Below, one piece after another: positions 13,175-46,140 of a stretch of 64,000 nt of DNA (position 1 is the first letter of the stretch; each line of letters opens with the position of its first letter). The notes under the pieces are model-generated. The model made no database searches and was not told where the DNA came from. It saw only the letters and a list, made by a program, of their open reading frames with translations. Location of the stretch: contig JBDQPD010000002.1 in assembly GCA_040260805.1 (NCBI GenBank), forward strand, positions 2,557 to 66,556. The letters are read 5' to 3'. This stretch comes from Myxococcota bacterium (GTDB lineage Bacteria > Myxococcota > UBA4151). The translations under genes and the position numbers were made by a program.

Positions 13175-13180
13175 GCGCTG

Positions 13181-18467: not shown

Positions 18468-18470
18468 GTG

Positions 18471-18647
18471 ATGAGTCAAGAACCCACCGCAGCAGAGCTT
18501 GCCATGCTACAAGGCAATAACGCCGCAGCCGTCAAACAAGCTGGTGAGGATGTACCCCATGAGCTGGTACGAGATCCCATCTACGCGATGATCTATGTCG
18601 GCGGTTTAGCGGTCTATGGGCTTCTTATTGCTGTATTCTTACTCTAA
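18471..18647 (+). CDS. Small (58 aa) protein with hydrophobic C-terminal helix; too short to appear in the ORF track
   Basis: ATG 3 nt after the rarA stop. MSQEPTAAELAMLQGNNAAAVKQAGEDVPHELVRDPIYAMIYVGGLAVYGLLIAVFLL. Its stop codon sits inside an AAGGAG Shine-Dalgarno for the next gene. Confidence 0.4.
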   Translation: MSQEPTAAELAMLQGNNAAAVKQAGEDVPHELVRDPIYAMIYVGGLAVYGLLIAVFLL

Positions 18648-18656
18648 GGAGATGCC

Positions 18657-19625: not shown

Positions 19626-21994
19626 GCGATTCGCTCCATCTTAATCGCCTAGACAGTTGGCTGGAACAGCACGCCTGTACACCCTACGGTCGAGAGCTAC
19701 TTGAGCGAGTCAAACGAGTTGAAGGGCTTGAGCTTGAGCGGCGCTTCGAGGCAGCTCAGGCGTGGTCAGAAATCCTCGAACGCGAACGCCCACCGATTCT
19801 AAGCCTCGATGATGATTGCCGACCTGCGCTGTCGCATCTGCAACGCAAAGGCGAGCTTGACGGCGTGCAGCTCAACTCGATTCGAGCGTTGCTTCAGGTG
19901 TTATCGGATCTGCGCCGACTCGAATCCGCAAGCGCGGCAAGCATCAGCGGCTTAACGTCAGCGCTTGGCGAGTACGACGATGCGCTTCAGCGTCTGCATG
20001 CCAGCATCGCCGCCAATGGTGAGCTGCTCGACAGCGCCAGCGCCGAGCTCGGTCCGCTGCGTCACCGGCGCGACGCGGCGCGCAGGCGGCACGCCCAGCT
20101 CGCCGACAGTCTACGCGATGAGCTGCATACAGAGGGCCACTTATCCGACCGCTATGTTACCCAGCGTGAAGACCGGCATGTGCTGCCGATCAAGGCAGCG
20201 TCCAAGCGGCAGTTTGGCGGCGTCATTCACGACGCTAGTCGATCCGGAAAGACCGCGTTCGTCGAGCCCGCTAGCTTGCTCGAAGCGGGCGCAGCGGTTC
20301 GACACGCCGAAGAGGCTGTGACCGCTGAAGAGAAGAGAATCCTCAAGCGCTTATCGCAAATAATTGCCGAGCATGCCGGCGAGCTATCCGACGATCTCAA
20401 GGTCCTCGCTACCCTCGACTCAGATCGAGCGCGCGGCTGTTTTAGTCGACGCTTTCATGGGGTGATCCCCACGTTTCAGCGGCAACGAATTCGGCTCAAA
20501 GCCCTCAAGCCGCCAGCGCTTCTTTTAGCGGATGTGACGCCGGTGGTGCCGGTCGACCTTGAGCTTGAAGACCCGGCGCGCATCTTGATTATCAGTGGGC
20601 CCAACGGGGGGGGTAAATCCGTGGCGCTGAGCGCCTGCGCTTGGGCTTTCGAACTCGCTCACCAAGGCATACCCATCCCAGCCCAAGAGGTGACGCTCCC
20701 GGCGCCACCTTACTCGCTCTGCGCAGTGATCGGTGACGCCGCTGACGACCGCCAGGCTCACTCTACATTTTCAGGTCATCTTGGAGCGCTTCAAGGCGCG
20801 CTCGAACATCATCAGAATCCAAGCTCACTGATTGTGATCGATGAGATCGCAAGCGGCACCGAACCGATGGCGGGCAGCGCCATCGCTTGCGGATTCTTAG
20901 AGACCTTCGCCGAGGGCGAGGCTTTTGTCGTCGCAACCACTCATTACGATCCCGTCAAACAGCTCGGGTTGAGCGATGAGCGCATGCGAACCGCAGCGGT
21001 ACGAGACCGACGTAACCCAGAGGTTGCTTTCCGGCTTTTCGCGGACGAGGTCGGTGGCTCACACCCCATCAAACTAGCGATCGATCTGGGCTTACCGGAA
21101 CAGGTCATTGAACGCGCCCGAAAGCATCTAGACCCGAACCGACGCGCACGCCTCGACGAGCTCAAGCGACAGCAAACCGAAGAAGCCAATCTCGAGCAAA
21201 TTCGGCGGCAACTCGACCTGCAAGAGCGAACCTTAGCGGAGCGACAAGCCGAGCTCGACAACGAACTCCAAAAGCTCGAGCGATCTCGCGAGAAACAGCG
21301 GGTTCAAAATGCCAAAGCTAAAGCAAAAATCGACACCTTGCGCGGCGAGCGACTCGCTCAAATTGATGCCTTGCGTGAAGAGTTGAGTGAGACCGTCAAA
21401 AAGCTACGCGCAGACCAAGGTTCGCAAGCAGCTAAAGATGGCGACCGGCTCTTTGCCGACGTCAAAGCCCTGCGCAATGAGGCGCAGGCCTTAAGTCTAG
21501 ACGATGAATCACCGACCTTAGACGACTCGATTGAGGTTGGTGATTCGGTTCGTTTATTTTCTGGTGGCAACGTCGGTGTGGTTCAGGAGTTCCGCGGGCG
21601 CAGCGCCGTCGTCTTGGTTGATGGGAAGATGTTCCACTTGCGCAAAGAGCAGCTTCAACGCGTCCAAAAACAAGCACCTAACAAGCCCAAAACCGGCTCG
21701 TCGAAATCGACCAAAAGCAAGAAAGAAAAAACGATAGCGGTGACGGAGTCAAGCGCCCCAAAACTCGACCTGAGGGGACTCCGAGCGCACGAGGCAGAGG
21801 CGCGGATTGATCGATTTTTACAACATCTTTGCGATGTCGATTGCGCAGGGCGTATCATTCACGGCATCGGCACAGGGGCGTTGAGAAAAACAACCTTAGA
21901 CTATCTCAAAAATGGGCCCTGGCGCGTCACCTATCGGCAAGGGTTGAGTAGCGAAGGTTCTGATGGCGTGACGGTGGTCACGGTGGAGAGCTAA
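19601..21994 (+). CDS. mutS2: Endonuclease MutS2 (MutS domain plus C-terminal Smr)
   Basis: Walker A GPNGGGKS, MutS family core, C-terminal Smr domain (LDLRGLRAHEAEARIDRFL...HGIGTGALR). Start chosen at ATG 19601 (MRSDRQEV...). The ORF-track extension back to 19499 is rejected. Confidence 0.9.
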   Translation: MRSDRQEVSDSLHLNRLDSWLEQHACTPYGRELLERVKRVEGLELERRFEAAQAWSEILERERPPILSLDDDCRPALSHLQRKGELDGVQLNSIRALLQVLSDLRRLESASAASISGLTSALGEYDDALQRLHASIAANGELLDSASAELGPLRHRRDAARRRHAQLADSLRDELHTEGHLSDRYVTQREDRHVLPIKAASKRQFGGVIHDASRSGKTAFVEPASLLEAGAAVRHAEEAVTAEEKRILKRLSQIIAEHAGELSDDLKVLATLDSDRARGCFSRRFHGVIPTFQRQRIRLKALKPPALLLADVTPVVPVDLELEDPARILIISGPNGGGKSVALSACAWAFELAHQGIPIPAQEVTLPAPPYSLCAVIGDAADDRQAHSTFSGHLGALQGALEHHQNPSSLIVIDEIASGTEPMAGSAIACGFLETFAEGEAFVVATTHYDPVKQLGLSDERMRTAAVRDRRNPEVAFRLFADEVGGSHPIKLAIDLGLPEQVIERARKHLDPNRRARLDELKRQQTEEANLEQIRRQLDLQERTLAERQAELDNELQKLERSREKQRVQNAKAKAKIDTLRGERLAQIDALREELSETVKKLRADQGSQAAKDGDRLFADVKALRNEAQALSLDDESPTLDDSIEVGDSVRLFSGGNVGVVQEFRGRSAVVLVDGKMFHLRKEQLQRVQKQAPNKPKTGSSKSTKSKKEKTIAVTESSAPKLDLRGLRAHEAEARIDRFLQHLCDVDCAGRIIHGIGTGALRKTTLDYLKNGPWRVTYRQGLSSEGSDGVTVVTVES

Positions 21995-27431: not shown

Positions 27432-29390
27432 CTACGCAACCCGTCGACGTCGACGTAGGATCGCAGCAAAGAGCAGCCACTCCAAACCGATCCCTGTAGC
27501 CGAACCACAAGCGCAACCGACTCCAGTCAGACCTGACTGCCCCCCGGGCGCGTTGTCTGGATCGTAGGTGCATACACCGGGTTCACCGACCGAGACATCA
27601 CAGCGATGCTCGACAGGGCACCAGCGGTTGTTTCCACACCACGTCGTGCATCGGCCATCGAGGCAGATACCGTGCTCGCATTCGCCGGCACCGCCGCAGC
27701 TGTCGCCTACAGAGCCTGTCCCGGTATCACCGCCCTCGCGGCACATCCCATTGCCCATCTCATCGATCACGCAGCCTTGACCGTCAGGGCATTGGTAATG
27801 ACCAAGTCTTGGGTCACAACCCCGACCACAACGACCGACGCCGTCAAAATAGCCACAGGCGCCGCTTTGGCAGTGTGAATCATCACCGCAGCGCCCATCG
27901 GGGCCTTGAGGTGAGCCCGGCTCAAAGGGTGAGCATTGATCTGCTTCACAGATCTGCCCTGCCGGACAATCTAGGTCGTCAATACAACTTGAGCCGACAT
28001 AAGGGGCACATACGCCGCCGCCATCACGAGTCGGCTGACAGTCCATCCCTCCGCTGCAATCGGCTCTCGTTTCGCAGTTTTGGAAGCAACGTCTCGAGCC
28101 ATCATAATAGATACACGTTGTCCCCTCCTCGCAGGGTTTGTCCTCACAGATCTCACCCAGTCGAGCGAAGCGTCGGTCGGCGCAAACTCGGACCGTATCA
28201 ACGCCGGGTCGCGTCACCTCAATACACTCTTGATCCTCGCCGCAGCTGGCGTCGCTGGTACAGGTTCGAGCGCAATTCCAACCCCGACCGGTCGGTGCGC
28301 ATTCGAGGCCCTCAGCGCAGGCGTAATAGCTGTCGCACGCTTCACCCTCTTGCGTGTCACCGCCATCGATGCACAGCGACATCCGGCTGTTGTTTTGACC
28401 GTCAAAGGTACGGCAGGTGGTTCCTTGAGGACAGGCCGGATCGCCGCGCTCACAGGTTTGATAACAGCGCGCATCGTTTTCATCGCCCAAGCAAAGCAGC
28501 CCTTCTTGGCAGGGTCTGCCCACACAGGCTTCACCGCGCCCTGCGGCGTCGGCCTGTGCGTCCGCTCGCAAGCAGACATTATTGCCGCCGGTTTGACCGC
28601 ACTCGTAACCCGTAGGGCAGGTGCCGCAGGTTTGGCTGCAGTACTGGCTGTTGCGGTCCGTCACGCAGATCCCTGAGTCGCAGTCGCTGTTGCGCGTGCA
28701 ACCCCAACCTAAGCCGCCGCGTTGTCCTGGGTAAATCCCACAGATTCCGTCGGTGTCGTCCTGACGCAGATAGCGAAAGGGGTAGCCGACATAAGAAGGA
28801 GTCATCACCGCATCAACGGTACAGTTCTCGCACGGATGATCGAGCCCTAACGCGTGACCCATCTCATGAACAGCGATGCTCTCGATATCGATATGTCGAC
28901 CGCGATCAGCGGTACCCCATCGGCTCCGGTTGCTCGGATAGTTGACCTCATTGAACTGAACATCAGAGTCGACGATATAGCAGTCCCGGTAAGGCCTGCT
29001 GCCCTGTCCGCTGCACGCGCCGCGGCGCCCCGAGAACGACGTCATCGTGATCCCTAGGGTTCCCGCTCCGTAGGGCCAATCATTGGCATTGCTCTGAAAC
29101 CAGACGTTGTTGGTGTTGTCGTTCGTTGCGCGCGGCGTCCCGCGGACGTCGCCAAGGTCTTGACCAGCGATCAAAGAGCAGCTGGCGTCAGTCCAGCTCT
29201 GCAGGCCTGCGCGCATGGCGCGCACGTCCGAGCCGTCGTTGATCCCCGAACGAGTGCTCCCCGACGTATCAATACGAAAGCCGATCGTATTCGTTTGGGT
29301 CAAGTTCCACTTGCCGATCTGACCTTGCCAAGCCTGAGCGGCGCTCGGGATCAACATCAAACTACACAAAGGGAGCACCCAGCGAATCAT
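27432..29390 (-). CDS. Secreted M10 (matrixin)-like zinc metalloprotease with long Cys-rich C-terminal modules and MYXO-CTERM-like tail
   Basis: HEMGHALGLDHP plus Met-turn AVMTPSY. More than 10 Cys-rich EGF-like modules. C-terminus GVGCACGSATGIGLEWLLFAAILRRRRRVA (GC motif, TM helix, Arg cluster). Confidence 0.75.
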   Translation of the reverse strand: MIRWVLPLCSLMLIPSAAQAWQGQIGKWNLTQTNTIGFRIDTSGSTRSGINDGSDVRAMRAGLQSWTDASCSLIAGQDLGDVRGTPRATNDNTNNVWFQSNANDWPYGAGTLGITMTSFSGRRGACSGQGSRPYRDCYIVDSDVQFNEVNYPSNRSRWGTADRGRHIDIESIAVHEMGHALGLDHPCENCTVDAVMTPSYVGYPFRYLRQDDTDGICGIYPGQRGGLGWGCTRNSDCDSGICVTDRNSQYCSQTCGTCPTGYECGQTGGNNVCLRADAQADAAGRGEACVGRPCQEGLLCLGDENDARCYQTCERGDPACPQGTTCRTFDGQNNSRMSLCIDGGDTQEGEACDSYYACAEGLECAPTGRGWNCARTCTSDASCGEDQECIEVTRPGVDTVRVCADRRFARLGEICEDKPCEEGTTCIYYDGSRRCFQNCETRADCSGGMDCQPTRDGGGVCAPYVGSSCIDDLDCPAGQICEADQCSPFEPGSPQGPDGRCGDDSHCQSGACGYFDGVGRCGRGCDPRLGHYQCPDGQGCVIDEMGNGMCREGGDTGTGSVGDSCGGAGECEHGICLDGRCTTWCGNNRWCPVEHRCDVSVGEPGVCTYDPDNAPGGQSGLTGVGCACGSATGIGLEWLLFAAILRRRRRVA

Positions 29391-29941
29391 CGTTGCGCTC
29401 CCGCAAACCGGCGAACCTCAGCGGCGAGTTGCGTCAACGGCATATGCGCTGGCTCTGGCGCCTCGCCCGGTCGAATCACGCCGTCTTTGCCTGGCTCGGC
29501 AAAAGCCACGTTGCCAAACTCTTCCACAGCGAAGGCGCCTTGCGCGTTGCGCTCCACCACATACCGACCGAGCCCAACACCGACCTGCACAAAGCGATTC
29601 TGGAATGCTGATAAGAACAAGACGAGCTCTTCGCCGGTCTTAAACTTGCTGGTCCCTGGTACACTTTGGATCAGGTCACCAAGCTCGCCGCCCATCTGCA
29701 AGAGCGTCAACGCGCTGCCCGCCTGAACCTTTCCTTTGAAGGCTTCAATCACCTCAAGCTCAATCAAGGTCGACAGCGCCCCCGGGCGCTCTTCAACGGT
29801 TCGAATAGTGCCCACACGAACCTGCACCACCAATTGGCTCATATCGGTCATCTGAGCCCGATTGAGCTTCATCACCACCGTTGCCTGGGCGGTCTGCGCC
29901 CCAGCGAACATCGTCAGCGCACACACTATCATCAATCGCAT
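29387..29941 (-). CDS. Small secreted hypothetical protein (184 aa) sandwiched between the two metalloproteases
   Basis: Start MRLMIVCALTMFAGAQTAQA (signal peptide) with GAGAGGAAG SD. ATGA overlap with the downstream protease start. No Cys-rich modules. Confidence 0.55.
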   Translation of the reverse strand: MRLMIVCALTMFAGAQTAQATVVMKLNRAQMTDMSQLVVQVRVGTIRTVEERPGALSTLIELEVIEAFKGKVQAGSALTLLQMGGELGDLIQSVPGTSKFKTGEELVLFLSAFQNRFVQVGVGLGRYVVERNAQGAFAVEEFGNVAFAEPGKDGVIRPGEAPEPAHMPLTQLAAEVRRFAGAQR

Positions 29942-31278
29942 CGTTTTCTTCCTCTCACTGCCAGCAGCCCAAAACACACCAACCAAGGCATCAAAGCGGG
30001 CGCCGAAGCACTTGAACATCCACATCCACCAGACGAGTCACCCTGCTCACCGCACCGGGTCAAGTCCACCGTATCCACCACACAGTAGCCGCCACTGCAA
30101 AGCGTGCCACTCGGACAATCTGCGGTCACACCACAGACCTGCGTACACAGGCTGCGTTCGACGCCGCGGATGCTCACCGGCTCACAGCGCCCGGAGGCGC
30201 ACAGATCAGCCTGAGGCAAAAAGTTATCGGGTCGAACGCATTGTGCGCCGATCGGTAAATATTCGCCATTGTTTGCGCCGCCCATCAAGCTCACGCAGTA
30301 CCCATCACCCTGAACCGCTAAACGACAGCTCATACCGCCAGGGCAAGGGTCATCCATGGCGCAACGCCGGCTGCATTTACCTTGGCGGCATAAGCCTGAG
30401 GCGCATTCACAATTTTTACCGCAGTTCTCCGCCAGCCTTAAGCTGGCCTGGTCAACTTCGGCGCGCACGCCAGGGTAGAGCTCACAGATCCCCGAGACAT
30501 CGGAAGGGCGAGGACCGATCTCCGGGTGCCCAGACCAAGCGGGCGCCATGATCGCGTCGCTACCGGACGGGGTGTGGCCTAGACCGGTCAGGTGACCAAA
30601 CTCATGCAACATCACCGAAAAGACATCGACCGCATCACCCCCGGTCGTCGGCGTCGACCAACGATGGTGAACCCCATTCATCAAAATATCGGAGTCCGTG
30701 CTTTCATCACCGCGCATCGAGGTCACCGTCACACCGAGAGTAGAAGGACCGCCTGGAAAGCCCGTCTCCATCCAAAAGAACTTGTTTCGCCCATCAGCGG
30801 CTTGATCCCAAGTGGCGAAATCAGGCTCTTGCTCTTCCGCTTCAAAAACAGTGCAGGGCACCAAGCGCCAACCGCGAATCGCCGAGCGCATGGCATCCAC
30901 GGCGAGGCTTGGGTCGTCAAAGTCTGCACTTCCAGCGGGGTCGATCGAATAAAAAAGCCGACCAACGCAGGTTTCATCTCGACAATAACCGTCAACGCAG
31001 CGTCTGTTGTTGCTGCACTCAGCCTCAGCCTGACAGGCACCATACCGGCCAGTCATTCGGCACGACTGACCGCCCGCGCAGCCACCAACGCACGACTCAC
31101 CCAGCAGCGACCAACGCCAGTTCGACCTCAGAAAGGCAGGTTGAGGGCCACACGAGGCATCAGGCCAACAGCCATGAGCTGGACCACATAAGCCCTCGGT
31201 ACAGGGCTGCTGAGCGGCCACAGCGGCGCCAGCCAACAACACACCAACCGACATGATCAGGACACGGAGCAAAGACAC
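29932..31278 (-). CDS. Secreted M10 (matrixin)-like zinc metalloprotease, Cys-rich, MYXO-CTERM-like tail
   Basis: HEFGHLTGLGHT...AIMAP. Signal peptide. C-terminus GGCGCSSASAPALMPWLVCFGLLAVRGRKRCD. Confidence 0.75.
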   Translation of the reverse strand: MSLLRVLIMSVGVLLAGAAVAAQQPCTEGLCGPAHGCWPDASCGPQPAFLRSNWRWSLLGESCVGGCAGGQSCRMTGRYGACQAEAECSNNRRCVDGYCRDETCVGRLFYSIDPAGSADFDDPSLAVDAMRSAIRGWRLVPCTVFEAEEQEPDFATWDQAADGRNKFFWMETGFPGGPSTLGVTVTSMRGDESTDSDILMNGVHHRWSTPTTGGDAVDVFSVMLHEFGHLTGLGHTPSGSDAIMAPAWSGHPEIGPRPSDVSGICELYPGVRAEVDQASLRLAENCGKNCECASGLCRQGKCSRRCAMDDPCPGGMSCRLAVQGDGYCVSLMGGANNGEYLPIGAQCVRPDNFLPQADLCASGRCEPVSIRGVERSLCTQVCGVTADCPSGTLCSGGYCVVDTVDLTRCGEQGDSSGGCGCSSASAPALMPWLVCFGLLAVRGRKRCD

Positions 31279-34228: not shown

Positions 34229-35746
34229 TCAGTGCGTCCACGCCTGATCAATGCGCGCATCCACAGCCATCGGGACCGCCGGAAAAAGATCAAAACCTGC
34301 ACCCACCATCGCCTCGATAAGCAGCTGCCGAGCAGACTCTGCGTGATCGACGTCGACCTCGACTAAGAGCTCATCGTGGACCATATTGACCAAACACGGT
34401 CGCCCCATGGCTTGGCTGCTCTGGCGTGCAAAGCGAATCGCTGCCCACTTAATGAGATCCGCGCCGCCACCCTGCACCGGATAGTTAAGCGCCAAAGTAG
34501 AGGAGACCTTTTCGGGGTCAAGCTTGAGCTTTCGACCGCTGATGGTCTCAAGCACCAAGGTCTGTTTCGCTTGCTTTTGAGCAAGCTCGCGCCAGGCAGC
34601 TAGCTGCGGAAACCCTTCGAAGTATTTGGCGAGCAAGGTGCGCGCCTCGTGGACCGACATCTCTAAACTCTGAGCTAAGCGGCGCGCGCCCATCCCATAG
34701 ATCAAACCAAAGTTGATGGCCTTCGCCGCATGACGCAAATGAGCGTTCTCCGTTTTGCTGACCTGCTGATTAAATAATCGACTGGCGACGGCGCTGTGGA
34801 AATCGCTCGAGAGTAGGGTCTCACGAAAGGCTTGGTCACCGGATAAAGCGGCGACAATCCGGAGTTCACACCCTGAATAATCGGCGCTGATCAGGACCCG
34901 CCCGCTGGGCGCCCGAACACAAGGCCTTAGGCTCGACGGGATATTCTGTAAGTTCGGTTCACCACAACTCATTCGACCGGTGTGTGCTCCGAGCGGCTCG
35001 AAGTGACCGAAAACGCGGCCACCGACTTGTCGCTCGGTGTAGCTCTCATACGTGCTGGTCAACTTACTGGCTTCTCGCCAGCTCAACAGCGCTTGCGCCG
35101 CAGGATGATCCACAGCGCCGAGCGTCGACTTGCTCAAGTCCTTGAGCTCGAAGCCTTGGTGCTTAAACCACTCGAGTAGTTTGTTCCGCTCGCCAGGCTC
35201 AATGTTGGGATGACCTCCCAAGTCGCGACCGACCATCCCCGTCAACTCCTGGCGCGCGCGCTCGGCGCGCTCGTGGGCGGCGGCAAGCACGTCGTCCCAA
35301 GCGGCGATATCGATCGGCAAACCTGCCGCCTGAAGCCCCTCACAAACGGGCAAGAAGGCGCTCTCTAACTTGGCGACACGGTCTAAATCACGAGCTCTAA
35401 GCTCAGCGCCGGCGCGCTGCGCAGCAGCCAGTAAATCGCTCGGCTCTGGGGTCTCGGGAAGCTCAACAGCGAGCGCTCCGGACTGCTTGAGTAAGCGATT
35501 GTAATCCTTCAGACACACGCAGCGGTGTGCGCGCGCCCCTAGACGCATCGCACGCCTCAGGACTCGGCGGTCTTCAACCACCCACACCGAGCGGGAATCA
35601 TTGAGTCGTTCAGCCGTCTCTTGTCCCAACGGCTCTTGGTGATGGCCATCCGAAACGATGACGCCGCCAAGCGGATCGTCAATCAAAGCGACTGCTGCAC
35701 CCAAGAGAAGATTGGACAAGCTCGAACTCCCATGACCAGATTGCAC
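34229..35746 (-). CDS. Family-A (Pol I-like) DNA polymerase, polymerase domain only; no 5'-3' exonuclease and a degenerate 3'-5' exonuclease region
   Basis: Motif A DYSGCELRIVA, motif B RHAAKAINFGLIYGMG, motif C VNMVHDELLVEV, and O-helix all present. Only ~150 aa precede the thumb and no DTE exonuclease motif is found. The gene start lies 27 bp from the divergent regulator. Confidence 0.75.
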   Translation of the reverse strand: MQSGHGSSSLSNLLLGAAVALIDDPLGGVIVSDGHHQEPLGQETAERLNDSRSVWVVEDRRVLRRAMRLGARAHRCVCLKDYNRLLKQSGALAVELPETPEPSDLLAAAQRAGAELRARDLDRVAKLESAFLPVCEGLQAAGLPIDIAAWDDVLAAAHERAERARQELTGMVGRDLGGHPNIEPGERNKLLEWFKHQGFELKDLSKSTLGAVDHPAAQALLSWREASKLTSTYESYTERQVGGRVFGHFEPLGAHTGRMSCGEPNLQNIPSSLRPCVRAPSGRVLISADYSGCELRIVAALSGDQAFRETLLSSDFHSAVASRLFNQQVSKTENAHLRHAAKAINFGLIYGMGARRLAQSLEMSVHEARTLLAKYFEGFPQLAAWRELAQKQAKQTLVLETISGRKLKLDPEKVSSTLALNYPVQGGGADLIKWAAIRFARQSSQAMGRPCLVNMVHDELLVEVDVDHAESARQLLIEAMVGAGFDLFPAVPMAVDARIDQAWTH

Positions 35747-35773
35747 CGCATCCCGGCTGATGGCGAGGAAATC

Positions 35774-37090
35774 ATGAGCGAGCGTATCGCGTTGGTTGAA
35801 GACGACCCTGGAGGTCGCAAGGTAGCGGCGGCTATGCTCGGTCGATCGGGTATGGACGTGGTCGCCTTCGCCAGCGCCGAAGACTTTTTACGGGTTCGGC
35901 CTGAGGTTTCGGTGGTGCTCACCGATCTGATGATGCCTGGGATCGACGGCATCGAATTGATGAAACAGCTCAAAGCGCAGCACGGCGATGACATCGAGGT
36001 CGTCCTCATCACCGCCTACGCAACGGCTGACGTGGCGGCTAAGGCGATGGCTGAGGGCGCCTTTCACTTTCTCACCAAACCGCTCGATCCTCAGCTTTTG
36101 GTCGAGACAGCAAAGCGAGCCGCTGAGCGGGTTCGACTGCGGAGCCGACTCGCTCGACTCGAAGACCGCCTAGCGACGTATGAAAGCCAAGAAATTGTAG
36201 GCGCCTCGAAAGCTATTGGAGAGCTCAAAGATCAATTGGCTCGACTCGCTCAAGCGGATCTCCCCGTCTTGGTCACCGGCGCCTCAGGGTCCGGTAAAGA
36301 GCTGGCAGCGAGGGCACTTCATCTGGGCAGTGAGCGGCGTGAAGAGCCTTTCGTTGCGGTCAACTGTGCCGCGCTGCCCGCTCAGCTTTTAGAGTCCGAA
36401 CTTTTTGGTCATTTACGAGGGGCATTCACGGGCGCTGAAACCCGCCGAAAGGGTCGGTTTCTTGAGGCACACGGCGGCACCTTATTCCTGGATGAAATTG
36501 GCGAAATGCCCTTGGGCTTGCAGGCAAAGCTCTTGCGCGTCCTTGAGCGTGGTGAGGTCACACCCTTAGGGGCTGACAAGCCACAGACCGTGAATGTTCG
36601 GCTAGTAGCCGCTACCAATCGAACCGATCTCGCCAGCGTGATGCGCGACGACCTTTATTATCGTCTTGCGGGGGCAGTGGTCGATGTACCCACGCTCGCT
36701 CAGCGGCGAGACGATGTGCCCATTTTGGTCGCTCATTTTTTATCTCGGCACGGATTAAGAGCGCCAAAACTTGGGGCTAAAGCACTAGAAGTGCTGCAAA
36801 ACTACAGCTGGCCGGGTAATGTTCGCGAGCTCGCGCACACTTGCGACCGACTCACGGCACTGTATCCGGGCGAGGACTTAGAAACCCTACCTGAAGCGCT
36901 TGATAACGATGCGAGTCCGGCGCGGCGCGGCTTGATTATCGATCCAAAATGGTCACTCGATGACATTCAAACCAAGGTCATCGAGTGGACGCTTGAACGC
37001 TTCGAGGGTAACCGGGCAGAAACGGCGAAGCATCTAGGTATTGGGGTAAGGACCCTTTACCGCCGGCTCAAGGACGACCCACCGGCCTGA
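35774..37090 (+). CDS. Sigma-54-dependent response regulator (NtrC family: REC + AAA+ + HTH)
   Basis: Receiver Asp (VLTDLMMPG), AAA+ Walker A GASGSGKE, GAFTGA sigma-54 contact motif, C-terminal Fis-type HTH. Start ATG 35774 with GAGGAA SD. Confidence 0.85.
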   Translation: MSERIALVEDDPGGRKVAAAMLGRSGMDVVAFASAEDFLRVRPEVSVVLTDLMMPGIDGIELMKQLKAQHGDDIEVVLITAYATADVAAKAMAEGAFHFLTKPLDPQLLVETAKRAAERVRLRSRLARLEDRLATYESQEIVGASKAIGELKDQLARLAQADLPVLVTGASGSGKELAARALHLGSERREEPFVAVNCAALPAQLLESELFGHLRGAFTGAETRRKGRFLEAHGGTLFLDEIGEMPLGLQAKLLRVLERGEVTPLGADKPQTVNVRLVAATNRTDLASVMRDDLYYRLAGAVVDVPTLAQRRDDVPILVAHFLSRHGLRAPKLGAKALEVLQNYSWPGNVRELAHTCDRLTALYPGEDLETLPEALDNDASPARRGLIIDPKWSLDDIQTKVIEWTLERFEGNRAETAKHLGIGVRTLYRRLKDDPPA

Positions 37091-39920
37091 GCTCGCCAAA
37101 AGTTCGAAGCGATGATGCTCGCTGACGCGCCATCGTGTTAAACAGATCAGAACCCCAGCACCACACGCTGCCATCGCTTCGTCGAGCGCAAGCGTGTAAC
37201 GCACCGATAGCCACCTCCTCGGCTTGGGTTAGCCCCTCAACCGAGACCGGGCTTCGCCGATGGTTCACACCCGCGTCACCGCAGACGCCAAAGTCGTTGC
37301 GACCCCAACACGACACCTCGCCGGCGCCATCAACAGCGCAGGTGTTGTATTCACCAGCGGCGATCTTCTCGATCCCGTCAAGTGACTCAACCGGAACCGG
37401 TCGCCTTCTGCTCGTTCCGGTTCCATCGCCAAGCTGCCCCAACGCATTGTAGCCCCAACAAAAAACACGACCATCGCGACCCAGACCGCAGTGATGATAA
37501 CGCCCTGACGTGAGCGTAGTAATCGATGACAGGTCCGCTGTAGGGCCGGCGGTCCAGCGTGATTGATTTTGTCCATCACCGAGCTCGCCAGCGCTGTTGT
37601 TACCCCAGCAACTGACCGTTCCATCGGTGTGCAATGCGCAGGTCGAGCGTTGCCCAGCGCTGATGGACGTTACGTCCACAAGATCGCGCACGGCGGTGGG
37701 TGACTGGCGACGTCTATTGGTGCCATCGCCGAGGTTACCAAAGGCATTATATCCCCAGCAGACGGCCGTCTGATCAACCGTCAGCGCACAGCTAAAGTCG
37801 CGCCCGAAACCAAACCGATCAAAGGGGCGCAAAGCCGGCACCTCGACGGCTCGGTCTCGACTGCTCACGGTGCCATCGCCGAGCTGTCCATTGGTGTTGA
37901 GACCCCAGCAAAATACGCTCCCATTTTGGGCCTTACCGCAGGTGTGCGCGCCGCCAGATGCTAAGGTGACGATGGGCTGATCGAGCCCAGCAACAGCTCG
38001 CGCTTCACCGACGCCCAACCCCAGCGCGCCGAGCGAGCCGTAATAGTTTCGTCCCCAACATGAGACCTCGCCTTCGCTGTCCAAGCTGCAGGTGTGAAAC
38101 AAAGACGAGGCGATCTGAATCGAGCCCGAGAGACCATGGACGGGCTCGGCGATTTGACCAAACCCACCTTTAGCGTCGCTGTGCGTTTCACCCCAGCGGT
38201 CGAGGCCCCAACACAACCGAGAACCGCTTTGGGTGGTGACGCAGCTGTGGTCGTAGCCCAGCGCCAGGGTCTCAACGCCAGCGATCTGGAAACTGCGCAC
38301 GGGCACACGACGACTCGAACGACTTCCATCGCCGAGCTGTGCATAGGCGTTGCCGCCCCAACAAAACACTTCGGAAGAGGCGCTGAACGCGCAGCTATGG
38401 CTCAAGCCAGCTCCGACCCCAATCATCGGAGGCAACCCGACCACACGCACCGGTCGACGTTGATTCGCCACGCTGCCGTTACCGAGCTTACCTTCGGCGC
38501 CTTGTCCCCAGCACCACACCGCCCCGTCGCCTGTGACGGCGCAGGTGTGATGGGCTCCTGCCGCAAGACTCGTGACACCGCTCAAGCCGACGACGTCACG
38601 CGCCACGCGCGAGTTCGCTGTCCGGTCGTCGCCGAGCTGCCCTAAATCGCCTCGACCCCAGCAGCGCACGGTGCCATCGCTCAGCAAAACACAGCTGTGT
38701 TCGGCGCCTAAAACCATATCCTCAATCACATCGATTCCGTGCACCGGAACCGGCCAGACCATGTACTGATTTCCGGAGTTCGGGTCACCGAGCTGCCCGC
38801 GGTTGTTGTGGCCCCAGCAAAGGGCGTTTCCGTTGGCCATGATCGCGCAGCTGTGGTGGTAGCCACAGCGAACCGACTGAGCACCTTCGGGCAACAAAAC
38901 CTGTTGCGGCTGTGGCTGCGCGTCGTTTCGTCCCATGCCGAGTTGCCCGAGATCATTTTTCCCAAAGCAATGCACTTCTCCATCGGCTTCACGAGCGCAA
39001 GTGTGCGCTTGTCCCAGGCAAAAATCGGTCACGTCCGCCAGCGCTTCGATCGACTGAGGACGGCGCGAGCCTTCGGACGGACCAATACCCAGCTGACCAT
39101 CAACCCCGCGGCCCCAGCAGGCTAAAACGCCCTCTTCATTCAACTGACACGCGTGTTCATAGCCTGCTTGGACACGCCCTGGCTGGCCCTCTCGCTGGCA
39201 GTCTACCCCGCAACCGTCGCCCGGTAGGTCGTTGCCGTCATCGCAACCCTCGACGCCTTCCATCACAAAAGAGTCACCACATTCAGCTTGAGCGCAATCC
39301 GCGAGACACTCGTCAGTGTTCGAGTCGTTGCCGTCATCGCAGGCTTCCTCGCCAGCCCAGACCACCCCATCGCCGCAGCGCGCCTGAGCGCACAATCCGG
39401 TGCAGTCATCTTCATCGGTCTCATTACCATCATCGCAGGCCTCGACGCCTTCGTGGACGAAGCCGTCACCGCAAGCGGCGAGTCGACAATCTTGCAGGCA
39501 CTCATCGCTGCTTGACGCGTTGCCGTCATCGCATGCTTCGACGCCTGCGTGCACAAAACCGTCACCGCAGCGAGCGGCTAAACAGGCTGAGGTGCACTCA
39601 TCATCATCGCTTGAGTTGCCATCGTCGCAGACCTCGCGAAGCTGCATCACACCGTCGCCGCATGAAGCGAGCACACAAGTGCTCAGGCAGTTGTCCGTAT
39701 CGTCTGCGTTCCCATCGTCGCAGCCTTCACCGGCCTGGACCAGACCATCACCGCAAGCCGCAAGTTGACACGCATTAGAGCAAGCGTCGTTGGCGACCAG
39801 GTTGCCGTCATCGCAGGTTTCGCCAGGGTCGATTTCTCCGTTGCCGCAAAGCAATGCTGCGCTGTTGCTACCGCATCCAGCAACACCAACCAAAACGCCT
39901 ATCGCCAACCATTTATGCAT
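37068..39920 (-). CDS. Lipoprotein with six N-terminal myxo-type Cys-rich repeats (CGDG...CDDGN) followed by ~10 RCC1 beta-propeller repeats
   Basis: Lipobox VAGCGS after start MHKWLAIG. Repeats ACGDGxVxxGExCDDGNxxxxDxC occur six times. RCC1 blades (CWGxNxxGQLGxG) follow. 23-nt convergent overlap with the regulator gene. Confidence 0.75.
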   Translation of the reverse strand: MHKWLAIGVLVGVAGCGSNSAALLCGNGEIDPGETCDDGNLVANDACSNACQLAACGDGLVQAGEGCDDGNADDTDNCLSTCVLASCGDGVMQLREVCDDGNSSDDDECTSACLAARCGDGFVHAGVEACDDGNASSSDECLQDCRLAACGDGFVHEGVEACDDGNETDEDDCTGLCAQARCGDGVVWAGEEACDDGNDSNTDECLADCAQAECGDSFVMEGVEGCDDGNDLPGDGCGVDCQREGQPGRVQAGYEHACQLNEEGVLACWGRGVDGQLGIGPSEGSRRPQSIEALADVTDFCLGQAHTCAREADGEVHCFGKNDLGQLGMGRNDAQPQPQQVLLPEGAQSVRCGYHHSCAIMANGNALCWGHNNRGQLGDPNSGNQYMVWPVPVHGIDVIEDMVLGAEHSCVLLSDGTVRCWGRGDLGQLGDDRTANSRVARDVVGLSGVTSLAAGAHHTCAVTGDGAVWCWGQGAEGKLGNGSVANQRRPVRVVGLPPMIGVGAGLSHSCAFSASSEVFCWGGNAYAQLGDGSRSSRRVPVRSFQIAGVETLALGYDHSCVTTQSGSRLCWGLDRWGETHSDAKGGFGQIAEPVHGLSGSIQIASSLFHTCSLDSEGEVSCWGRNYYGSLGALGLGVGEARAVAGLDQPIVTLASGGAHTCGKAQNGSVFCWGLNTNGQLGDGTVSSRDRAVEVPALRPFDRFGFGRDFSCALTVDQTAVCWGYNAFGNLGDGTNRRRQSPTAVRDLVDVTSISAGQRSTCALHTDGTVSCWGNNSAGELGDGQNQSRWTAGPTADLSSITTLTSGRYHHCGLGRDGRVFCWGYNALGQLGDGTGTSRRRPVPVESLDGIEKIAAGEYNTCAVDGAGEVSCWGRNDFGVCGDAGVNHRRSPVSVEGLTQAEEVAIGALHACARRSDGSVWCWGSDLFNTMARQRASSLRTFGELRPVGRP
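39180..39880. repeat. Intragenic tandem DNA repeats (~90-nt unit, about 6 copies) encoding the Cys-rich modules of the RCC1 lipoprotein
   Basis: Recurrent gttgccgtcatcgcaggc...tcgacgcc units seen directly in the sequence. Confidence 0.6.
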
Positions 39921-40022
39921 ACTTCGTCCAAGCCCTTGGAAGTCGCTAGTTTGAGCGAACTTGGATCGGCGATCAAGCCGCGCCGCTGTTGGTGATCTGG
40001 GCCCCAAAACCTTAGACCGGTG

Positions 40023-42320: not shown

Positions 42321-43262
42321 GTGACCCGTCTTGTCCTCATGGTGACCCTAACCTTTCTAGCGCAGCAGGCGCTGGCGAGCGAGCCGCGCACCAAAGTTGT
42401 AGTCAATGGCTTGATGTCACCGGTCTATTTCAATGATGGGGACACCTTTAGAGTGTTGTCCGGACAGCTCTCGGGGACCAAGGCTCGGCTCGAGGGCTTT
42501 AATACGCTTGAGTCCTTTGGACCGGTCCACAGCTGGGGCTCATGGAGCACACGCGAGCTCTACGTCAACGCCAAGACCGCCACCTTGCACGCAAGGCGGG
42601 GCATCTGGCGCTGTTCGTGGGATCAACGAGTCGATGGCTATGGCCGCGGGCTGTTCAAATGCCCAGAGCTCGCCATCCACATGATCCGGACGGGCATGGC
42701 GCACGCGATGACCGTCACCGCCCAGCCCTCCCCAGAGATCTACCTTGAGGCGCAGCGCGAGGCGATCAAACATCGGCGCGGGATGTGGGCCGGCGGCGTG
42801 CCGAAATATGTCCTCACCTCGCTGCACTCAGTGGACGAAAAACCCAATCAGAACTGGGCGTACAACCGTCTGGTCTCAACCCATGATGGGCACTCCGAGC
42901 GCTGGATTCATAGCGAGACCTACGGCGAATGCCACAACGTCTGCGTGCAAGAAGTCCAGCTCAGCAGCGCCACCCTCAAAGAGGTTAAACAGCGCCTGGA
43001 CTCGGTCGCCGAGCTCACGACCTGGCAAACGCTTGGGGCGCGCAAACAAGTTGAGGTTTTAGAGATCTACCTCATGGTCAACACCGTCTCAGCGCATATC
43101 CCCAAAGCTGAACGCGACCTGATGCGTCAAGCGCTCACGCAGCTGGTCGATACCGGCTTGCTCGTCGCCGAGAAAACCACGCCGGGCGGCTGCATGATCT
43201 ACACCGACTTTCGCCGTCGCTTTGGCGGCGGTAAAGCGACCTGTCTGAAGCTGGCGCGATGA
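42321..43262 (+). CDS. Secreted two-domain protein: N-terminal SNase-family nuclease plus a conserved ~130-aa C-terminal 4-Cys domain of unknown function
   Basis: GTG start with GGAGC SD and a signal peptide. NDGDTFRV...ARLEGFNTLE...DGYGRGLFKCPELAIHMIRTGMAHA...RRGMWA. The C-terminal domain is shared with gene 62293..63057. Confidence 0.7.
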   Translation: MTRLVLMVTLTFLAQQALASEPRTKVVVNGLMSPVYFNDGDTFRVLSGQLSGTKARLEGFNTLESFGPVHSWGSWSTRELYVNAKTATLHARRGIWRCSWDQRVDGYGRGLFKCPELAIHMIRTGMAHAMTVTAQPSPEIYLEAQREAIKHRRGMWAGGVPKYVLTSLHSVDEKPNQNWAYNRLVSTHDGHSERWIHSETYGECHNVCVQEVQLSSATLKEVKQRLDSVAELTTWQTLGARKQVEVLEIYLMVNTVSAHIPKAERDLMRQALTQLVDTGLLVAEKTTPGGCMIYTDFRRRFGGGKATCLKLAR

Positions 43263-44623
43263 AGTATTTTCTTCCCTTTATCTTAGCCGCTTGCAGCTAC
43301 GACATGCCGACTCGGCCGGTCCAAGGGTACGAATTTGATGACGCCGCCTGTTCGGACGGTATCGATAATGACCAAGACAGCCTGACCGACTGCGAAGACC
43401 CTGACTGTTTGGCGCTGTCAACGCACTGCGGACAACAAGTCCCGGTGGTTCCCGATGGACGCGCCGAAGAGGGTATGTTGTGCCGCGACCAGATCGATAA
43501 CGACGACAACGGGCAGTTCGACTGCGGCGACCCTGCCTGCCGTGAGCAGATGGAGAACTGCTGCGTCTTAGAATTTTCAAACGAAGCGTGCTCTGACGGC
43601 ATCGACAACGACCAAAACGGGTTCACCGACTGCGCGGATTTCGCATGCCGCATGGGCATCTTTGTCACCGTTTGCTTTGAAGGTGACAGTTCAAGCTGCA
43701 GTGACGGTCTCGATAACGACGGCGACGGCGACATCGACTGCGCCGATTCATCCTGCGCTCGAGAGGCGTCGTGCTCGAATGATTGCGAAGGGCTGCCTGA
43801 GGGCATCGAAGACACCGTTGAGAAGTGCACAGACGGCTGCGACAACGACGGCAACGGCTACGCGGACTGCCGAGACCTCAGCTGCTCTCAGAGTCAAAAC
43901 CCGGCGATTGTGGACGCCTGCACGCCCGACCGCGGCGACGAGAACACGCTGGCTCGCTGCACCGACGGCGTCGACAACGACGACAACGGCTTTATCGATT
44001 GCAACGACTTCTCGTGCTCGAGAAGCCAAGATCAGGCCATTTTAGACGCCTGCGCTGAGCGCATGGAGAACACTCTTGAGCGCTGCGGTGACGGGATCGA
44101 TAACGATGACAACGGCTTTGTCGATTGCAACGACTTCTCCTGCTCAAGAAGCGATGACCCGGAGATCGTAGCGCTCTGCGCTGCGAGCGCCGAAGACTCG
44201 ATAGAGGCTTGCTCTGACGGTCAGGACAATGACGGTAACGGCTTTATCGACTGCGACGATTTCAGCTGCTCTCAATCGGACAACCCAGAGGTATCCGGCC
44301 TGTGCGGCGGCGCGGCAGAGGCGAGCTTTGAGACCTGCTCTGATGGCGTCGATAACGACAACAATGGATACACCGATTGTGCCGACTGGTCGTGCCGGAA
44401 CGCTGAAGATGCGGTGGTGCGTCAAGCCTGCCAAGAGTCGGTGTATCGACCCGATTTCATGGGTATTCCGGCGGGTCCTCAAGAGACCGCTCGAGCCAAC
44501 GCCTTTTGCGAAGATGGACTAGACAACGATGGTGATGGCTATGCCGACTGTGCCGATTGGGACTGCAGTTGGAACCCTTTAGTCACCGTGTGCGACGGAC
44601 CCCGAGTCTGTGAGGAACGCTGA
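43259..44623 (+). CDS. Lipoprotein composed of ten tandem ~21-aa acidic 3-Cys repeats (C-x-D-G-x-D-N-D-x-[DN]-G-x-x-D-C-x-D-x-x-C), putative Ca2+/metal-binding
   Basis: Lipobox ILAAC. Ten repeat copies counted by eye. ATGA overlap with the upstream nuclease gene. Confidence 0.7.
   Translation: MKYFLPFILAACSYDMPTRPVQGYEFDDAACSDGIDNDQDSLTDCEDPDCLALSTHCGQQVPVVPDGRAEEGMLCRDQIDNDDNGQFDCGDPACREQMENCCVLEFSNEACSDGIDNDQNGFTDCADFACRMGIFVTVCFEGDSSSCSDGLDNDGDGDIDCADSSCAREASCSNDCEGLPEGIEDTVEKCTDGCDNDGNGYADCRDLSCSQSQNPAIVDACTPDRGDENTLARCTDGVDNDDNGFIDCNDFSCSRSQDQAILDACAERMENTLERCGDGIDNDDNGFVDCNDFSCSRSDDPEIVALCAASAEDSIEACSDGQDNDGNGFIDCDDFSCSQSDNPEVSGLCGGAAEASFETCSDGVDNDNNGYTDCADWSCRNAEDAVVRQACQESVYRPDFMGIPAGPQETARANAFCEDGLDNDGDGYADCADWDCSWNPLVTVCDGPRVCEER
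43330..44580. repeat. Intragenic tandem repeat array (~60-130-nt units) encoding the CxDGxDNDxDGxxDCxDxxC modules
   Basis: Recurrent tgctctgacggcatcgacaacgac... units seen directly in the sequence. Confidence 0.6.
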
Positions 44624-46140
44624 TGAAGCTCTGGATGCTCTTATTGATGTTGTTGGCGAGCCCCGCCTTTGCCGCCGAGACCGCCTGCGACGATGGTCAA
44701 GATAACGACGCCGATTCGATGATGGACTGCGCCGATGCCGACTGCGCGCAGGCAGCCAATTGCCAGCCAACCGGCGCCTCCGAGAACACGGACGCGCTGT
44801 GTTCGGATTGGATCGACAACGACGGCAACGGGCAGATGGATTGCGACGATGTCGCCTGCTTTGGTGCAGGCATCGTCGCTTGCCTGGGAAGCTTTGAGCG
44901 CAAATCAGGCGTCGCGGTGCAAACGATGGCGCCGGTCGCGCCAGCCCAAGCCGCTCAAGCCGCCGGCGCATCGAGCGCCAATGCGCCGAGCGAAGCCGAC
45001 CTCAAAGCGAAGGACAACAACGGCGAACGCAACGACCTGTTGTGTTCAGATGGTATTGATAACGATGGCGACGGGGCCGTTGACTGCGCCGATTATGGCT
45101 GCCGCTTCGATCCGACGGTGACGATCTGCCAGGGCGCTCCAGGCATGCGCTTCTCGATCGTCGGTAATGTGGCGCAAAGCTTTGACATCGAAGCCGATGA
45201 GCATGACACCCGCTTTACCAAGCTGCAGCTGCGCAGCTTTGGACCGATCCCGCTGATCCAAAACAGCTTCTACTTGGTCTCGATGCGGGCTGAAAAAACG
45301 CCTCGTTTAACCTTTGCTTTGTTCCAGGTTCCCTTAGGCGGTGGTCATTACCTCAACTTGAACTCCGGCGGCGGCGGGCTCTCCAACGCGTTGATCGTCT
45401 CCACCGCAAAGCAGCTCTTAGGCGACCCAGCCTACTACCTGTATTCAGCCTTTGAACAAGGCAACGGAGCGGCTGCCGAGCTCGGTGGGCCGGTCCCTTA
45501 TGTTCCGGCGGGTAAGATGAACTACCGACTCTTCGCAGCGGGCGGTTCAGGGCGCTTCTCAGGTAACATCGGCGGCCGTTACTTCACCTATGAAAACACC
45601 AACTACACCTACTCTGTAGGTGGCCAAGTCAGCGCCAACTTGATCGGCTTTACCAGCCGCTGGGACTCGCCCTTCTTGATGAGCCCAAGCGCCACCGCTG
45701 TGGCGGTTCGAGTCGGCGGGAAATACGACCGGCGTGCGCAGGAGCGCTACCCCGCATTCAACGCCGGAATCTCGGCGCGTCACGGTCGCTTCGTGGTGAT
45801 GCTTGAGGACTATTATAAGCGAGAGCTTAACTTTGGTTCGGTGCAAAATGCCTACAACGTGACGCTCGGCGCTTTGGTGCTCAAAAACAAGCTCATGGCT
45901 GCCGCTGATTTCGGTCAGTTCCTTGCCACCGACTTCACCAACCCGCCGGACCAACTACAGACCGATCTGAAAAAGATTAGAGATGAGACGCAGTGGCGCG
46001 CCGCGCTGCACTACTACTTTAGAGGCAACATCGGTTTGCTGAGCCTAATCTATTCGGATCATCGCCTAGCAGCCAACGAGGCAGGCAAGGACCCGGAGCG
46101 TAAACACAGCATCAAATTGGTGGCTCAATATCGCTTCTAA
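44623..46140 (+). CDS. Putative outer-membrane beta-barrel protein with three N-terminal CxDGxDND repeats
   Basis: Signal peptide MKLWMLLLMLLASPAFA. Three repeats, an Ala/Gln-rich linker, then ~350 aa of alternating beta-strand pattern ending in the aromatic terminus ...VAQYRF. 1-nt overlap (TGATG) with the upstream gene. Confidence 0.6.
   Translation: MKLWMLLLMLLASPAFAAETACDDGQDNDADSMMDCADADCAQAANCQPTGASENTDALCSDWIDNDGNGQMDCDDVACFGAGIVACLGSFERKSGVAVQTMAPVAPAQAAQAAGASSANAPSEADLKAKDNNGERNDLLCSDGIDNDGDGAVDCADYGCRFDPTVTICQGAPGMRFSIVGNVAQSFDIEADEHDTRFTKLQLRSFGPIPLIQNSFYLVSMRAEKTPRLTFALFQVPLGGGHYLNLNSGGGGLSNALIVSTAKQLLGDPAYYLYSAFEQGNGAAAELGGPVPYVPAGKMNYRLFAAGGSGRFSGNIGGRYFTYENTNYTYSVGGQVSANLIGFTSRWDSPFLMSPSATAVAVRVGGKYDRRAQERYPAFNAGISARHGRFVVMLEDYYKRELNFGSVQNAYNVTLGALVLKNKLMAAADFGQFLATDFTNPPDQLQTDLKKIRDETQWRAALHYYFRGNIGLLSLIYSDHRLAANEAGKDPERKHSIKLVAQYRF

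Follow-up and report, generated by a model that had tools for sequence, protein, structure and literature searches.

Family-A DNA polymerases (PolA) have been reclassified into 19 major subfamilies (Czernecki et al. 2023, PMC10201439). That work lists APEX 1/2, CHEAP and Hot Spring 2 as auxiliary bacterial subfamilies, which occur in addition to a canonical Pol I. APEX, which combines a dead exonuclease with an active polymerase and also co-exists with Pol I, shows an ultraviolet (UV)/repair phenotype in Streptomyces, and both APEX 1/2 and CHEAP have Leu at position B3 of motif B (PMC10201439). The only PolAs described there without a complete in-chain exonuclease domain are CCPol and the split T7-like S-SBP1 group, and none of the 19 clusters was reported from Myxococcota, a phylum that is unmentioned in the main text (PMC10201439). 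Here we describe a compact PolA gene in a stretch of 64,000 nucleotides (referred to as the window) from a bacterium of this phylum (GenBank assembly GCA_040260805.1, contig JBDQPD010000002.1, positions 2,557 to 66,556 of the forward strand). The analysis suggests that the gene probably encodes an auxiliary, non-proofreading chromosomal polymerase for gap filling or repair, which would work alongside a canonical Pol I encoded elsewhere.

An earlier note on this DNA had described the protein as retaining all polymerase motifs (A, B or O-helix, and C), and this description was borne out. The sole Pfam match was PF00476 (DNA_pol_A), which covered amino acids (aa) 208-504 with 237 bits against a gathering cutoff of 34.3, and the motifs, verified by translation, aligned with their counterparts in Taq polymerase (Table 1). 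The same alignment located the TGR motif (T256-G257-R258) and motif 6 (NYPVQGGGAD, with N421 and Q425). The residues of motifs A, B and C and of the TGR motif were invariant in a 40-sequence alignment, the exception being T256, for which some members have Ser, and N421 and Q425 of motif 6 were invariant in alignment A2. When the protein was compared with the PDB sequences by phmmer, the best match was the Aquifex pyrophilus Pol I 8jrb (160 bits, aa 124-504), with KlenTaq a close second; a literature search found no paper describing PDB 8JRB. The AlphaFold2 model of the full protein had a pLDDT of 91.6 and a pTM of 0.90, and its Foldseek matches were the large fragments of Pol I enzymes (8jrb, Taq, Bst and Klenow; E ~1e-30, TMq 0.73-0.82), indicating a Klenow-type right-hand fold. 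The nearest NCBIfam model was NF011539, "bifunctional 3'-5' exonuclease/DNA polymerase", which scored 269 against a cutoff of 640 and was covered at profile positions 214-626 of 628 only, and the canonical Pol I models NF004397 and TIGR00593 likewise stayed below their cutoffs (242 versus 720 and 201 versus 600). The 5'-3' exonuclease had been said to be missing entirely, and it is: no Pfam match to PF02739 or PF01367 was found in the protein, and only ~109 aa precede the polymerase domain.

Catalysis would follow the standard two-metal mechanism, with Asp289 of motif A and Asp458/Glu459 of motif C as the predicted catalytic residues, while Arg338, Lys342, Phe346 and Tyr350 of the O-helix would bind the deoxyribonucleoside triphosphate (dNTP) and Glu294 would act as the steric gate against ribonucleoside triphosphates. 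Because Glu294 and Phe346 are retained, we infer a DNA-templated, dNTP-selective polymerase. Two features that the polymerase domain shares with its family may bear on its accuracy. Cys293 in motif A stands where Pol I has Ile, and the loop before motif 6 is, in the Taq alignment, 8 residues shorter and without an equivalent of Taq R746, which we take as the counterpart of Klenow R841. The motif-A Ile is a determinant of fidelity in Klenow (Ile709) and in Taq (Ile614). Judging from the sequence, Cys293 and the shortened loop may relax template and base selection, and both are treated here as leads only.

The N-terminal domain had been regarded as a short, degenerate 3'-5' exonuclease remnant without the DxE motif, which agrees with our alignments. 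The relatives of ~580 aa, in which this domain is intact, carry ExoI as LDTET, ExoII as HNAxFDL and ExoIII as YAxxD, together with PF01612. When these sequences are aligned with the window protein, the latter shows IDDPL at the ExoI position and RRVLRR at the ExoII position, and the ~60-aa segment that bears ExoIII is deleted. None of the four catalytic carboxylates of the three motifs is conserved, and in the clade of short forms to which the window protein belongs no acidic residue is conserved at the ExoI, ExoII or ExoIII positions. The protein was matched neither by PF01612 nor by a hidden Markov model (HMM) for which the ~580-aa relatives had supplied the exonuclease domains. The residues that the short clade does keep invariant in this domain are R60, L63, R64, G70, R75, L85 and G90. 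The domain was modelled by AlphaFold2 with a pLDDT above 90 in the full protein and of 87 in isolation, and the modelled order beta1-beta2-beta3-alphaA-beta4-alphaB-beta5-alphaC plus a final helix is the strand/helix order of the DnaQ-type core. The top Foldseek matches of the isolated domain, which were sub-significant, were DEDD exonucleases, namely NrnC (probability 0.94), the exonuclease domain of Bst Pol I, Exd1 and the exonuclease domain of the apicoplast polymerase (apPOL). In hhalign comparisons, the short N-domain was related to the N-domain of the ~540-aa relatives (E 2.6e-5), and the latter was related to real exonuclease domains (E 6e-4) in the ExoII register. We read the N-domain as the vestige of an exonuclease domain, with half of it deleted and its catalysis lost, a descent that is well supported by position and topology and weakly by sequence statistics. 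The N-terminal ~100 aa would correspond to the beta-sheet core and the last helix of the ancestral 3'-5' exonuclease domain, from which the middle ~60 aa and the catalytic carboxylates are gone, and the remnant probably persists as structural scaffolding for the polymerase domain. An N-terminal peptide (SNLLLG / GNLPFG), which is disordered in the model, was also considered as a beta-clamp-binding motif and was dropped because its resemblance to QL[SD]LF is only loose.

With the catalytic carboxylates lost, the enzyme would not proofread, and without a 5' nuclease it would not carry out nick translation. A polymerase capable of neither would be suited to short gap filling or lesion-proximal synthesis, possibly with relaxed fidelity. 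The auxiliary repair role is favored because of the analogy with APEX, in which a dead exonuclease, co-existence with Pol I and a UV phenotype are found together. Several points weigh against this reading. The isolated N-domain had no Foldseek match at E <=1e-3 (best E 0.027, TMq 0.5-0.65), the direct hhalign comparison of the short N-domain with real exonuclease domains was not significant, and the sequence support for descent from an exonuclease is transitive and weak. The sequence upstream of the polymerase gene yielded no SOS signal and no other sign of a damage response. The repair genes to which the earlier note had drawn attention are indeed present in the window (recN, rarA/mgsA and mutS2 at 15.6-22.0 kb and recQ at 57.7-59.6 kb), and they lie 12-24 kb off behind unrelated genes, are not co-oriented with the polymerase gene and are absent from the recovered orthologue flanks (up to ~10 kb per side); they are not linked to it. 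Finally, the enzymatic activity, the repair role and the co-existence with Pol I are all properties that we infer.

The gene itself is well documented by its orthologues, of which at least 15, with 483-510 aa, 50-93% identity and the same architecture, were recovered from independent marine metagenomes, metagenome-assembled genomes (MAGs) and one single-amplified genome (SAG). A search of 5.8 billion proteins yielded P0001-P0017, comprising full-length proteins of 483-510 aa and three fragments of 324-352 aa, with PF00476 as the only domain; they came from JGI, ENA, Logan and NCBI assemblies and were 52-93% identical to the window protein by BLASTP and 50-93% identical in alignment A3. A scan of species-representative genomes gave one close orthologue among the matches listed, L009 (78% identity); one of the two patterns used was a generic PolA motif, and the scan says little on distribution. 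L009 (CACGMS010000065.1) comes from SAG AG-422-L23, which is labelled "Candidatus Hydrogenedens sp.", whereas the MAGs with other orthologues are labelled Myxococcota or Myxococcales, and one of these two conflicting labels is probably wrong. In comparison with the 93% identical orthologue L089, the ratio of nonsynonymous to synonymous substitutions (dN/dS, Nei-Gojobori) was 0.05 over the polymerase domain, and the N-domain had a ratio of 0.21; both domains are therefore under purifying selection. An upstream frameshift or assembly error that would hide further domains was excluded, because orthologues of the same length with an intact frame occur in at least 15 independent assemblies and the regulator gene is located directly upstream of such orthologues in independent assemblies. 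The short form is thus a genuine conserved architecture, not an artefact, with vertical inheritance in a marine lineage to whose MAGs NCBI gives the label Myxococcota.

The mechanically called open reading frame (ORF) at 34229..35746 on the minus strand encodes 505 aa from a GTG at 35746. It is most likely that the true start is the TTG at 35719, which would give a protein of 496 aa, and that the GTG over-extends the gene by 9 codons. This start was chosen because the ATG starts of the orthologues at loci L008 (56% identity) and L001 (52%) align exactly with it and because a GGGAG Shine-Dalgarno sequence lies 7 nt upstream. Furthermore, the gene calls of P0001, P0007, P0009 and P0014 begin at the equivalent position, and in the alignment of the 5' regions of the orthologues the sequence further 5' of the TTG is not conserved as coding. 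In the closest orthologues (P0003, P0005 and L009), a peptide-like sequence, "SGHG..S", is kept at 35719-35746, and this stretch may be conserved regulatory DNA in the divergent intergenic region. The earlier note had argued that missing domains could not be accommodated upstream, since the divergent sigma-54 regulator starts 27 bp away. The lack of room stands, and the distance has to be revised: with TTG 35719 as the start, the gap to the ATG of the regulator gene at 35774 is 54 bp, not 27 bp.

Table 1. Features of the polymerase gene and its divergent neighbour (positions are those of the window)
Feature	Position	Strand	Basis and remarks
Compact family-A DNA polymerase, coding sequence	34229..35719	-	496 aa, with TTG 35719 as the probable start; stop codon 34229-34231
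N-terminal mini-domain, 109 aa; vestigial, half-deleted 3'-5' exonuclease (DnaQ-like)	35393..35719	-	No DEDD(Y) residues; translation, alignment, model, hhalign
Polymerase domain (thumb, palm, fingers), ~387 aa	34232..35392	-	phmmer alignments to 8jrb and Taq; invariant catalytic columns; dN/dS 0.05
Motif A, ADYSGCELR	34859..34885	-	Catalytic Asp289, steric-gate Glu294; aligned to Taq D610-E615; checked by translation
Motif B (O-helix), RHAAKAINFGLIYG	34694..34735	-	Arg338, Lys342, Phe346 (B3), Tyr350 = Taq R659, K663, F667, Y671; checked by translation
Motif C, HDE	34370..34378	-	His457, catalytic Asp458 and Glu459 = Taq H784, D785, E786; checked by translation
Divergent intergenic region between polymerase and regulator genes	35720..35773	.	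54 bp
NtrC-type sigma-54-dependent response regulator (receiver, AAA+ with GAFTGA, HTH_8)	35774..37090	+	Pfam; conserved divergent neighbour

The relationship of the short clade to other PolAs was assessed with a neighbor-joining tree of the polymerase domain (100 bootstrap replicates). The short clade was monophyletic (100%), the ~540-aa forms with a dead exonuclease and the ~580-aa forms with an intact one were grouped together (95%), and the short, ~540-aa and ~580-aa forms were united as one family (99%). Aquificae-like sequences (P0041 and others) and canonical Pol I each formed a separate group (99% and 100%, respectively). In an exhaustive HMMER scan of 1.84 billion cluster representatives, the short clade was represented by one full-length 50%-identity representative and one 324-aa fragment. 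The same scan returned many other relatives of 480-560 aa without DxE and without a match to the exonuclease HMM, and therefore loss or reduction of the exonuclease recurs in the family. We treat the family as unplaced relative to the 19 published clusters and as a member of no named one, set apart from APEX and CHEAP at position B3. Phe at this position is common to the window protein, Pol I and several phage subfamilies, and the Aquificae-like enzymes that were aligned here have it as well. The scan also brought up many much longer proteins, of 1200-1560 aa (P0148, P0155, P0171, P0172, P0192, P0201, P0202 and others), whose C-terminal PolA domain shares 34-38% identity with the window protein; in these, a primase/helicase may be fused to the polymerase, as in the PREX or AEP-fusion type.

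The divergent regulator is a conserved neighbour of the gene among its orthologues. It was found directly upstream at the loci of P0014 (MAG GCA_002696345.1 and three other assemblies), P0009 and P0007 (GCA_028823075.1), and the pairing is kept down to 52% identity, with counterparts at L001 6514-7818, L008 1223-2371 and L090 1855-3207. The ORF layout of L009 fits the same divergent pair, which is indicated there by layout only, and the 2-kb contig of P0001 has just a 33-aa fragment of the upstream gene. The pair persists despite rearranged flanks: the genome of P0014 differs from the window and from the P0009 locus, and a block of M10-peptidase, amine-oxidase and GT2 genes lies on opposite sides of the pair in different genomes. 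At the loci examined for the ~540-aa and ~580-aa relatives, the regulator neighbour was absent. A search for sigma-54 sites (TGGCAC-N5-TTGC, with up to 2 mismatches) found none in 35720..35773, and matches across the window were below the shuffled expectation; no match to the sigma-70 consensus was found in 35720..35773 either. Because the pairing is conserved and a sigma-54 promoter was not detectable, a regulatory link from the regulator to the polymerase gene is regarded as possible, no more.

The chromosomal setting of the pair is an ordinary core chromosome. The neighbours include genes for two M10 peptidases, argJ, rseP, the sigma-54 regulator, an RCC1/DUF4215 protein, fumarase and metH, with secA, lspA, recN, rarA, mutS2 and recQ further out. 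The rseP gene is convergent with the polymerase gene at a gap of 30 bp, and the guanine-plus-cytosine content of the polymerase gene matches that of the rest of the window. Several other regions of the window were annotated in passing. The plus-strand region 12416-21994 holds a MotA/ExbB gene and two MotB-plug/OmpA genes, followed by genes for NAD kinase, recN, rarA (mgsA), an unassigned 322-aa ORF and mutS2 (MutS_V plus Smr); recN, rarA and mutS2 form a cluster of their own ~12 kb from the polymerase gene. At 27432-31278, the two matrixin-like (M10) peptidases, which have Cys-rich tails, flank a 212-aa ORF without a family match, and a 979-aa protein with DUF4215 Cys-rich repeats and RCC1 repeats is encoded at 37068-40007. 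The M10 pair is syntenic in orthologue loci, and M10 and DUF4215/RCC1 proteins are typical of Myxococcota-like secreted repertoires. Upstream of metH, at 42321-46140, there are three consecutive same-strand ORFs (313, 454 and 505 aa) without a Pfam match, of which the second and third encode "acidic double-disulfide repeat" proteins (NF033662; 10 and 3 repeats, respectively).

The alternative that survives best, although we consider it unlikely, is that the gene encodes the only PolA of the lineage, having replaced the canonical Pol I and filling the gaps between Okazaki fragments with the help of a 5' flap endonuclease from another gene. In its favor, all orthologue loci seen have one copy of the gene and a stable synteny (in L009 by ORF layout only), the polymerase domain is under very strong purifying selection (dN/dS 0.05), and the best sequence match to a solved structure is the Aquifex pyrophilus Pol I 8jrb. 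A precedent for a short PolA that replaces Pol I exists in some Aquificae (PMC10201439). However, this replacement is reported from some Aquificae only, and all other auxiliary bacterial PolA subfamilies surveyed co-exist with Pol I (PMC10201439). The family described here is phylogenetically distinct from the Aquificae-like group, and neither the 64-kb window nor the orthologue loci hold a gene for a stand-alone 5' nuclease. An extended version appears to us clearly less probable still: the protein would be the sole Pol I-type polymerase of its lineage, its mini N-domain with the invariant Arg cluster would be repurposed for binding DNA or a partner, and the regulator would make the gene stress-inducible. 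If it were the sole Pol I-type enzyme, it would be a natural minimal PolA that lacks the 5' nuclease as well as half of a supposedly indispensable exonuclease scaffold.

A polymerase like CCPol, whose truncated exonuclease domain docks a small partner so that the complex is a primase or replication initiator, is very improbable here. CCPol also has no complete in-chain exonuclease domain and gains priming with its partner MP (PMC10201439), and the N-domain of the window protein is under selection with invariant Arg60, Arg64 and Arg75. On the other hand, no conserved small ORF and no helicase gene adjoin the polymerase gene, which is followed after 30 bp by the convergent rseP, and the locus belongs to the core chromosome, not to a mobile element. 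What is left of the exonuclease domain also differs, since CCPol retains three C-terminal exonuclease helices and the window protein the N-terminal beta-sheet core, and CHEAP, the closest subfamily to CCPol, has Leu at B3 where the window protein has Phe346. At one orthologue locus (L008 4166-4357), a 63-aa ORF does separate the polymerase gene from rseP; because it occurs in that locus alone and has no equivalent in the window, it is not a conserved partner comparable to MP of CCPol.

It is even harder to regard the gene as a decaying or catalytically inactive PolA relic: one domain has clearly degenerated, but the catalytic residues are invariant across orthologues that are 50-93% identical, the dN/dS values are 0.05 and 0.21, the frame is intact in at least 15 assemblies and the structure model is confident. 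An origin from a phage, a plasmid, a virus or a defence system, such as the reverse transcriptase (RT)-associated PolA of DRT systems, is the least credible of all and was rejected, since the matches that could suggest it (PADLOC RTasPolA, PDLC03816, 110 bits; PHROG 17, 283 bits) reflect generic family-A similarity, no RT or phage genes occur in the window neighbourhood and no RT in the orthologue loci, the best phage tblastn match has 36% identity over 58% of the protein, IMG/VR gave 0 matches to six query-derived peptide patterns (a search that reaches close relatives only), and housekeeping genes are the neighbours in all loci.

The auxiliary gap-filling or repair polymerase thus remains our preferred interpretation. 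Exonuclease-dead auxiliary PolAs are already known, as in APEX, Taq-like Pol I, Pol theta and Pol nu, and so are physically truncated exonuclease domains, as in CCPol and the split T7-like enzymes. What is new is the combination of a cellular, chromosomal and vertically inherited gene, an exonuclease domain of which only the beta-sheet half is present, and a family, unlinked here to the published clusters, with intact, dead and truncated forms. Current understanding is not challenged by this protein: as a variant of the known auxiliary bacterial family-A polymerases that do not proofread, it would be unusual without being surprising. It shows how far the exonuclease scaffold can shrink in nature under purifying selection, and a compact natural enzyme free of exonuclease may interest polymerase engineering. 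Furthermore, the family apparently spans intact, dead and truncated exonuclease states, and it would therefore be a natural series for studying the loss of proofreading in auxiliary repair polymerases.

Among the known systems, APEX is the best functional analogue. Like the window protein, it is a chromosomal, non-prophage enzyme of ~500-600 aa without a 5' nuclease, in which DxE is lost and the polymerase motifs are kept. Unlike the window protein, in which only ~100 aa of the exonuclease domain are left, APEX retains this domain at full size and with a sealed pocket. It also differs in having Leu at B3 in place of Phe346 and in its occurrence in Actinobacteria only, whereas the carriers found here are labelled Myxococcota. 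APEX also belongs to the "broken thumb" supercluster with CHEAP and is not phylogenetically close to the window protein. CCPol of the staphylococcal SCCmec-type elements shares a 3'-5' exonuclease domain that is physically truncated (by ~110 aa in CCPol), with no complementary fragment encoded nearby. Of that domain CCPol keeps three C-terminal helices only, in contrast to the beta-sheet core and last helix of the window protein. Moreover, CCPol needs MP and the helicase Cch2, primes, and resides on mobile elements, whereas the gene described here is part of the core chromosome and has rseP and the sigma-54 regulator, not partner genes, beside it. The RT-associated PolAs of DRT systems are encoded beside a defence RT, which has no counterpart near the window gene or in the orthologue loci.

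Taq, Bst and mycobacterial Pol I are likewise non-proofreading with a vestigial exonuclease, and the large fragments are the closest folds (TM ~0.8), but their vestigial domain is of full size and the N-terminal 5' nuclease is kept. The Aquificae-like or Hot Spring 1 PolAs (cd08639; 8jrb) share the absence of a 5' nuclease, Phe at B3 and the shortened loop before motif 6 without an equivalent of Taq R746. In contrast to the window protein, ~93% of the Hot Spring 1 members keep an active-looking exonuclease, and the neighbor-joining tree separates the two groups (99%); the identity between Aquificae-like enzymes and the window protein was ~33% for P0041 by BLASTP, 29% in alignments A1/A2 and 24% for 8jrb by Foldseek. 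The metagenomic relatives of ~580 aa and ~540 aa (P0019-P0039; P0018, P0026, P0029 and P0031), some of which are labelled Myxococcales, belong to the same family as the window protein (99%) and are encoded by stand-alone chromosomal genes. They share the motif-A signature DY[SAG]xCELR, with Cys at the position of the Pol I Ile (P0024 has Ala there). The ~580-aa forms differ from the window protein in keeping PF01612 with DxE, FD and YxxxD, whereas the ~540-aa forms have lost the exonuclease motifs, as the window protein has, and differ from it in their longer N-domain.

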